From an uncultured Gemmatimonadaceae bacterium (lineage in GTDB: Bacteria; Gemmatimonadota; Gemmatimonadetes; Gemmatimonadales; Gemmatimonadaceae): 64,000 nucleotides of DNA. The stretch lies in contig CAVUDW010000003.1 in the NCBI GenBank assembly GCA_963740355.1, positions 1,280,001-1,344,000 of the forward strand, written 5' to 3'. Of this stretch, positions 40,495-40,678 are shown piece by piece. The position numbers were made by a program, and so were the translations under genes. Below the pieces are notes generated by a model. The model had not been told where the DNA came from. It did no database searches and saw nothing but the letters and a program-made list of their open reading frames with translations. Numbering within the stretch: position 1 is the first letter of the stretch; each line of letters starts with the position of its first letter.

Positions 40495-40665
40495 GACGAC
40501 CGCGCGCGCCCTGCCTTGCGAGATGCGGGATCGCGTCGGCGTCCCTGGTAGCTGTCCGGGCTTGTAGCGATCGGGACGACGGCGCTCTGACTCTGCGACG
40601 GGCTCACGGCGCCCGGGGCGCTCCGAACGAGCTGCCGCCGTCCCGGAGATTTAGCTTCTGTGCGA
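40495..40665 (-). ncRNA. putative bridge RNA in the IS110 non-coding left end (ends approximate)
   Basis: Two stem/internal-loop modules containing GCGCC and CGCAGAG (target) and ACAGCTAC and GCAAG (donor). Confidence 0.8.
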
Positions 40666-40678
40666 GGAGACATACAAG

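Follow-up and report, generated by a model that had tools for sequence, protein, structure and literature searches.

Anatomy, insertion sites and covarying guides of an IS110-group element with a predicted IS621-type bridge RNA in a Gemmatimonadaceae genome

The element, its copies and its recombinase

A whole insertion sequence of the IS110 family lies on the minus strand of the window, by which is meant the entire stretch of 64,000 nucleotides that was analyzed. It is composed of a non-coding left end followed by a recombinase gene, and the coordinates of its parts are collected in Table 1. The genome that carries it measures 5.45 Mb in 5 contigs, with 65% G+C. Positions in the left end are given as RNA nucleotides (nt), where nt n corresponds to window position 40677-n on the minus strand.

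Table 1. Features of the element, of its predicted bridge RNA and of its insertion site.
Feature	Position in the window	Strand	Remark
IS110-family insertion sequence, whole (TGTATG...ACAGCTA)	39531..40676	-	1146 bp without core, CT on each side
Left target TCTGCGC (40685-40679) and core CT (40678-40677)	40677..40685	-	TCTGCGC-CT in 6/7 copies, ACCGCGC-CT in 1/7
Core CT (39530-39529) and right target CTGCG (39528-39524)	39524..39530	-	CT-CTGCG in 7/7 copies
Recombinase gene, 311 aa, Shine-Dalgarno GGAGG at 40491-40487	39546..40481	-	PF01548, PF02371, NF033542
-35-like TTGACT in right end, containing the recombinase TGA stop	39544..39549	-	fixed place in relatives
-10-like TATGTC, left end nt 3-8	40669..40674	-	TAT at nt 3-5 in 46/47 distinct end pairs
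Non-coding left end, 195 nt	40482..40676	-	predicted structured bridge RNA, nt 32-180 (40645-40497)
Target-binding loop module, nt 32-105	40572..40645	-	basal stem 32-43/94-105, bulged A44, stem 45-48/90-93
Basal stem CGGGACGGCGGC/GCCGUCGUCCCG of target module	nt 32-43 / 94-105	-	string located
GGAGCGCCC	nt 53-61 (40624-40616)	-	string located
Left target guide candidate GGAGCGCC, nt 53-60	40617..40624	-	left flank plus C at 5/8 positions
Target-loop stem-loop CGGGC-GCCGUGA-GCCCG, nt 62-78	40599..40615	-	helices 2-3; CGGGC/GCCCG = 62-66/74-78
Right target guide CGCAGAG, nt 80-86	40591..40597	-	reverse complement of CT+CTGCG
Target-loop handshake bases U87 C88	40589..40590	-	U87 fits donor position 7 (A)
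Donor-binding loop module, nt 106-179	40498..40571	-	lower stem 106-110/174-178, invariant A115, helices 4-6
Donor stem GCCC/GGGC	nt 116-119 / 166-169	-	string located
Left donor guide ACAGCUAC, nt 122-129, after GG linker	40548..40555	-	the element's last 7 bases plus core C
Donor-loop stem-loop, nt 132-150, bulged A146	40527..40545	-	helix 6
Right donor guide, discontiguous: A153 U154 / (G158) C159 A160 A161 G162	40515..40524	-	CAAG invariant, 52/52 sequences
Donor-loop handshake bases G163 C164, then A165	40513..40514	-	fit target positions 7, 6 (C, G)

Seven copies of the element were found in the genome, each of 1146 bp and each with an intact 311-aa ORF. Five are identical and the remaining two differ by 21 and 44 nt. 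In these diverged copies the 936-nt ORF carries 21 nt (2 aa) and 43 nt (9 aa) differences from the window copy and the 195-nt left end carries 0 and 1, the single change falling at nt 140 in the donor stem-loop; had the left ends diverged as fast as the ORF, the two would be expected to carry about 13 changes in all.

The right junction reads ACAGCTA followed by CT-CTGCG and the left junction reads TCTGCGC-CT followed by TGTAT, in all the copies save for one left flank (ACCGCGC). The dinucleotide CT is present at both ends of each of the seven copies and is taken as the core, because the two junctions have only CT in common. The junctions are those stated in the first-pass annotation, which from the window alone had predicted the circle junction ACAGCTA-CT-TGTAT and the empty target TCTGCGC-CT-CTGCG, and all the strings quoted in that annotation were located again at their positions. 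Among four DNA runs compared, one contig of run X2 joins 39530 to 40677 and omits exactly the 1146 bases; it has 6 extra letters (one more repeat unit) and departs from the window sequence past 40730. This contig fits the boundaries of the element and may be derived from a different repeat copy; as evidence for them it is weak, since the flanks consist of repeats. The contigs of the four runs, which could hardly reveal a circle junction, contained none.

The recombinase ORF is the sole long ORF with homologues in the element, and GGAGG stands 5 nt before its ATG. Its product matched the Pfam families PF01548 (DEDD_Tnp_IS110, 1.3e-26) and PF02371 (Transposase_20, 2.1e-15), as well as the NCBIfam model NF033542 'IS110 family RNA-guided transposase' (211 bits against a cutoff of 140), by whose name such proteins are already called RNA-guided transposases. 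Its solved relatives include ISCro4 (1.2e-35, residues 3-303) and IS621 (5.8e-33). Residues D7, E50, D92, D95, S230 and G231 align with D11, E60, D102, D105, S241 and G242 of IS621, described as catalytic and loop-stabilising residues by Hiraizumi et al. 2024 (PMC11208158); the 8wt6 chain has the native IS621 numbering plus two residues, and the alignment was counted accordingly. A DEDD RuvC-like N-terminal domain and a C-terminal Tnp domain with the catalytic Ser-Gly are present. The compact recombinase of 311 aa, described earlier as apparently intact, is so by its retained DEDD and Ser residues and its matches to Pfam, NCBIfam and the solved recombinases.

A 12-bp hairpin is located at 39550-39579, in the last codons of the recombinase gene and directly upstream of the -35-like box, and similar GGTGGC...GCCACC pairs are seen in the same position in the closest relatives; it might block read-through into the junction promoter or mark the end of the mRNA. 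An ORF of 375 aa starts at nt 4 of the element (40482-40673, minus strand) and continues in frame into the recombinase gene. Gene callers may list it as an N-terminal extension, which is probably an artefact.

Anatomy and predicted folding of the left end

Two loop modules, one for the target and one for the donor, can be read in the left end. The right target guide CGCAGAG had been described as the exact reverse complement of the core plus right target, and this holds at 7/7 positions in 7/7 copies; U79 precedes it, and U87 C88 and then A89 come after it. The donor guide ACAGCUAC, claimed to be the left donor plus the first core base, matches the ACAGCTA+C end of the element. It is followed by C130 A131, and G151 C152 stand after the stem-loop 132-150. 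The segment GCAAG, which had been proposed to pair with CTTGT with one G-U, is found at nt 158-162 (40519-40515), with three bulged bases between U154 and G158: CAAG faces the core CT and the following T and G (C8 T9 T10 G11), G158 wobbles with T12, and the AU faces T14 and A13. The handshake bases G163 C164 have no complementarity to their own donor positions (A, T), U87 is not complementary to target position 7 (C), and C88, unpaired with donor position 6 (T), fits neither site.

The left target guide, for which the first-pass annotation had claimed no match, agrees with its flank in GCGC+C only (5/8): positions 1-3 are GGA against TCT or ACC in the flanks, and the core T, which is faced by C61, is unmatched. 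No 8-mer in nt 44-71 gives a better register than 5/8, and a bulged reading of this guide (UC..GCGCC) is possible.

The matches were tested against chance with 20000 dinucleotide shuffles of the 195-nt end. The 8-mer ACAGCTAC appeared in 27 of them, CGCAGAG in 1775 and both in 6. Taken alone, the right-target match is weak, because CGCAGAG is present in about 9% of the shuffles. The pair of ACAGCTAC and CGCAGAG is not due to chance, and the evidence from relatives is much stronger than such single-sequence tests. An Rfam scan of 36000-44000 matched no family at or near its gathering threshold, the sole hit being a chance miRNA at 40732-40790 (23.3 bits against 80). In that interval, on the minus strand, a perfect 15-bp hairpin followed by TTTT is situated just downstream of a 643-aa ORF (40978-42909, minus strand), and it looks like the terminator of that ORF.

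Folding of the left end, which the first-pass annotation had offered as a check, bore out the layout in part. Each module in isolation is predicted to take up the proposed fold, with -47.9 kcal/mol for nt 30-106 and -27.8 kcal/mol for nt 105-182, but the minimum-energy fold of the full 195 nt (-91.8 kcal/mol, with a z-score of only -2.37) has a rearranged donor module. The consensus fold, when enforced, has -83.7 kcal/mol and is about 8 kcal/mol costlier than the full-length minimum. Because the target is a tandem repeat, G56-G58 are able to pair with C80-C82 in the target loop, and parts of both guides are therefore predicted to be paired in the free RNA, where the right target guide has a mean unpaired probability of 0.38 and the left donor guide one of 0.20. 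The element is without a convincing 5' stem-loop comparable to nt 1-33 of IS621.

The joined ends may also form a promoter. TTGACT lies 13 nt from the right end, and joining of the ends via one CT, together with the two bases that open the left end, gives a 17-nt spacer to TATGTC. Of the 47 distinct end pairs, 34 match TTGACA at 5/6 or more at this fixed place, a count that falls to 0-1 with the frame shifted; in one of the seven copies CTGACT replaces TTGACT, and the -10 box TATGTC is poor, with 3/6 matches to TATAAT. From these sequences, a putative promoter is split across the circle junction and conserved.

By analogy with IS621, the element would be excised as a circle, in which ...ACAGCTA-CT-TGTAT... 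would be the donor site. The joined ends would put TTGACT 17 nt from TATGTC, and the bridge RNA would then be transcribed from about nt 15 on. Its donor loop would bind the circle junction, its target loop would bind the host site, and Ser230 would cleave after the CT core. Once strands have been exchanged, the incoming DNA would be matched by the handshake bases: U87 would fit donor A7, and G163 C164 would fit target C7 G6.

Covariation in relatives, target sites and alternative readings

The relatives comprised 80 loci at 36-60% amino-acid identity, found by one protein-based scan, and further loci at 64-77% nucleotide identity, found by a DNA search of 201 family genomes including the window's own; this DNA search gave no near-identical copy of the element outside its own genome. 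By means of two anchors (TTGTA and CCCGRACNG), 77 left ends were taken. The MAFFT alignment contains 52 distinct left ends, was not fitted to structure and leaves out two loci of unpublished genomes. In two cases (L070, with left ends at 189 and 1423, and L016, with two on opposite strands) the relatives lie beside or within another copy of the same element. In another genome of the same genus (L115, G132), two contigs break off inside a related left end that is 76% identical over nt 24-127, which suggests a multi-copy relative that broke the assembly.

When a structure of 35 pairs was placed on the alignment, 84.9% of the cells were paired, against 69.8% after shuffling (reached in 0 of 500 trials) and 37-45% with the partners slid. 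Changes on both sides were seen in 28 of the 35 pairs, and the covariation score was 0.388 against 0.154. Helix 1, in the target module, has 13 of 14 pairs changed on both sides with 90.7% of cells paired, and all seven pairs of helix 6, the donor stem-loop, have such changes. Run unaided, RNAalifold recovered the stems of the target loop as well as GCCC/GGGC, and 14 of 20 pairs had changed on both sides.

The guides vary together with the sites that they are proposed to read. The right target guide agrees with the right flank at 4.65 of 5 non-core positions over 26 distinct guides, against 1.63 when shuffled (0 of 10000), and at a mean of 4.52 of 5 over 31 distinct guide-flank pairs. The pairs in the closest clade are CGCAGAG/CTCTGCG, CGCGGAG/CTCCGCG, CACAGAG/CTCTGTG, CACGGAG/CTCCGTG and GTGAGAG/CTCTCAC. 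For the left target guide the best 8-mer scored 5.68 of 8 over 38 distinct regions against 3.92 when shuffled (0 of 10000), and many natural pairs among the relatives stand at 5-6 of 8. A 7-mer of the donor guide plus CT is found 900-1700 nt downstream at 64 of the 77 loci, with 6 distinct 7-mers; a given 9-mer has a chance of about 0.003 of lying in an 800-nt stretch. Among the 13 loci without such a match are short ones, the two from unpublished genomes and five copies with a guide that differs from every 7-mer downstream. The five copies belong to one Dehalococcoidia genome (L024-L028) and have the donor guide ACCGTTGT with no exact ACCGTTG+CT downstream; their guide and right end seem to differ by one base. 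One locus (L033) has the right donor TGTAA and U in place of A153, which is a compensatory change. Covariation of the guides with target and donor, suggested in the first-pass annotation as a further check, was accordingly seen for 26 right target guides and six donor 7-mers.

Donor position 7 is complementary to the first handshake base of the target loop in 16 of 17 distinct cases, and target position 7 to that of the donor loop in 41 of 48; for each loop, this base pairs with its cognate site in 0 of 48. At the second handshake position the signal is weak (5/17 and 15/48).

All seven copies are inserted in (TCT or ACC)GCGC-CT-CTGCG, and CT-CTGCG is followed in each by T or A and then T. The left target sits in an 8-nt tandem array, AGGCGCAG x2.4 on the plus strand, whose unit on the element's strand is CTCTGCGC; the natural target is the unit boundary of this 8-bp tandem repeat, in intergenic repeat arrays of the element's own genome. 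The genome has 979 CTCTGCG sites, of which 39 have GCGC on the left (32 empty and 7 occupied), and the empty 14-bp site TCTGCGC-CT-CTGCG is present 13 times where base composition predicts about 0.13. To the left of CT-CTGCG, TCTGCGT is found most often, and none of its 30 sites is occupied. As GCGC stands on the left of 7/7 copies and the TCTGCGT sites are never occupied, the left half of the target is read too. The sole genomic site that fits the left target guide fully, GGAGCGC-CT-CTGCG, is empty.

Further repeats were noted around the element. One perfect empty 14-bp target lies at 40829-40842 (plus strand), about 150 bp from the occupied one and in inverted orientation, within a tandem array of CTCTGCGT x3 (40828-40851). 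The intergenic flanks at 39351-39525 and 40868-40957 are made of short tandem units of 6-18 nt, rich in GCAGTT/CTGC, and stretches like the right flank occur at more than 20 other places of the genome with 79-85% identity. From their sequence, the flanking repeats look like a host repeat family that provides targets for the element. No stem-loop shared by the seven left flanks, as for ISPpu10, was evident, because these flanks share nothing beyond about 16 nt.

On this material we judge, with a probability of about 0.9, that the span 40676-39531 (minus strand) holds an IS110-group element, active now or until recently, with an IS621-type bridge RNA and a matching DEDD-plus-Ser recombinase. This reading is based directly on the anatomy of the sequence, the copies with their sites, the catalytic residues and the covariation among relatives; that the element is transcribed, forms circles and recombines would follow by analogy with IS621. 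Within a bridge element, the left target guide might instead be decayed or partly used, with the choice of site made mainly by the 7-nt right guide, the core and the handshake bases; recognition would then be weighted to the right half, and the repeat array would merely supply many sites. The 5/8 match in all seven insertions speaks for this, as do the 5-6/8 of the closest relatives (L010-L012) and a 2026 preprint reporting that IS621 is able to recombine substrates matching only half of the bridge RNA. It is nevertheless unlikely in our estimation, since GCGC-C is found on the left of 7/7 copies though in 39 of 979 CTCTGCG sites, all 30 TCTGCGT-CT-CTGCG sites are empty, and the identity of left guide and flank is significant across the family; the strict use of GCGC-C means that at least five left positions matter.

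Two other explanations deny the guide function of the left end. Under one of them it is an ordinary structured 5' leader, or the ends bind the recombinase, and the matches are incidental or come from similarity of the ends; the high count of the right-target 7-mer alone among the shuffles would allow this. It is very improbable, because the guides vary jointly with the flanks (26 right target guides, 6 donor 7-mers), the handshake bases obey the published IS621 rule and each part of the layout has its counterpart in IS621; the covariation rules out an ordinary leader whose matches are due to chance. Under the other, the 375-aa ORF from the ATG at 40673 is the true protein and the conservation of the left end is protein conservation. 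The ATG at nt 4 is indeed in frame, and the frame is open through the left end, but homology to Pfam, NCBIfam, IS621 and ISCro4 begins at residue 2-4 of the 311-aa form, it is the ATG of this form that GGAGG precedes, an in-frame stop lies within the left end in 20 of 28 relatives, length differences are not multiples of 3, and the variation in the stems is compensatory. A coding left end is thus hardly credible.

Returning to the bridge RNA, it is a tentative possibility that the element represents a clade of bridge systems in Gemmatimonadaceae whose RNA is leaner and whose target loop divides its tasks differently. Such an RNA may have no 5' stem-loop and about 165 nt of structure; its 8-nt left guide may never read the core T and may tolerate three distal mismatches, next to a right guide of 7 nt. 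The handshake bases may be tuned to the 8-bp tandem repeat, and the guides would therefore read neighbouring repeat units on opposite strands. If true, this would provide a natural case in which the right half carries more weight in recognition, and the element would be a compact orthologue that merits a trial as an editor.

Comparison with known systems

In IS1111-group elements, which share the protein family and the two-loop guide principle, the guide RNA lies in the right end. The RNA described here follows the IS110-group arrangement, in which the left end encodes it upstream of the gene. The ISCro4 recombinase (PDB 9t56) is the best solved relative by sequence, with a chain of 341 aa against 311 aa here, and is likened by protein alone. 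ISPpu10 and ISPpu9 of Pseudomonas putida (10.64898/2026.03.19.712850, PMC12288879) resemble the present case as multi-copy IS110 elements in one intergenic repeat; ISPpu10 is reported to also need a target-encoded stem-loop (10.64898/2026.03.19.712850), whereas none is evident here.

A search by title and abstract found no literature on such elements in Gemmatimonadota, and the supplementary orthologue tables of Durrant et al. could list this one or its relatives. Covariation over many IS110 orthologues is reported by Durrant et al. 2024 (PMC11208160). The present data add a well-documented natural case of a bridge RNA from a little-studied phylum, with seven insertions, thirteen empty perfect sites and covarying guides, and indicate that raw sequence is enough for a correct reading of a bridge RNA. 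The partial match of the left guide, together with the strict use of GCGC-CT-CTGCG, is a natural data point in the current debate on how much pairing of the target loop is needed.

The closest comparison is with IS621 of E. coli (PMC11208160, PMC11208158; PDB 8wt6). According to the account in PMC11208158, each of its two loops has the order stem, linker, left guide, stem-loop, linker, right guide, handshake bases and stem, and the target-loop/donor-loop layout of IS621 type that had been assigned to the present left end agrees with it part for part. Both systems have a DEDD-plus-Ser recombinase of similar size (5.8e-33), a left end that encodes the guide RNA with its two pseudo-symmetric loops, the core CT and the right donor TGTAT. 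They share an 8-nt left donor guide after a GG linker (A123-C130 in IS621), CAAG (C162-G165) and AU (A157-U158) as a discontiguous right donor guide, bulged A residues and handshake bases, -35 and -10 boxes split across the circle junction, and a target in a host repeat.

The differences lie in the sites and in the reach of the guides. The left donor is ACAGCTA here against ACAGTAT in IS621; the latter was given in the first-pass annotation as part of ACAGTAT-CT-TGTAT, which is consistent with PMC11208158 at positions 6-14, the range over which it was checked. Durrant et al. do not give the full string in their main text. Of the left target guide, 8 bases are usable against 9 in IS621, and its natural sites are matched at 5; the right target guide is naturally 7 nt against 4 in IS621, where it is extendable to 7 (PMC11208160). 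The present element has no clear 5' stem-loop, its target is an 8-bp tandem repeat against the IS621 site ATCAGGC-CT-AC (PMC11208160), and its host is a Gemmatimonadales bacterium. The known bridge-RNA mechanism is left unchanged by this case. Every feature of membership that a sequence can test was found except a full match of the left guide, and as far as these features go the system works like IS621: the element is an ordinary bridge-RNA element of the class described in 2024.
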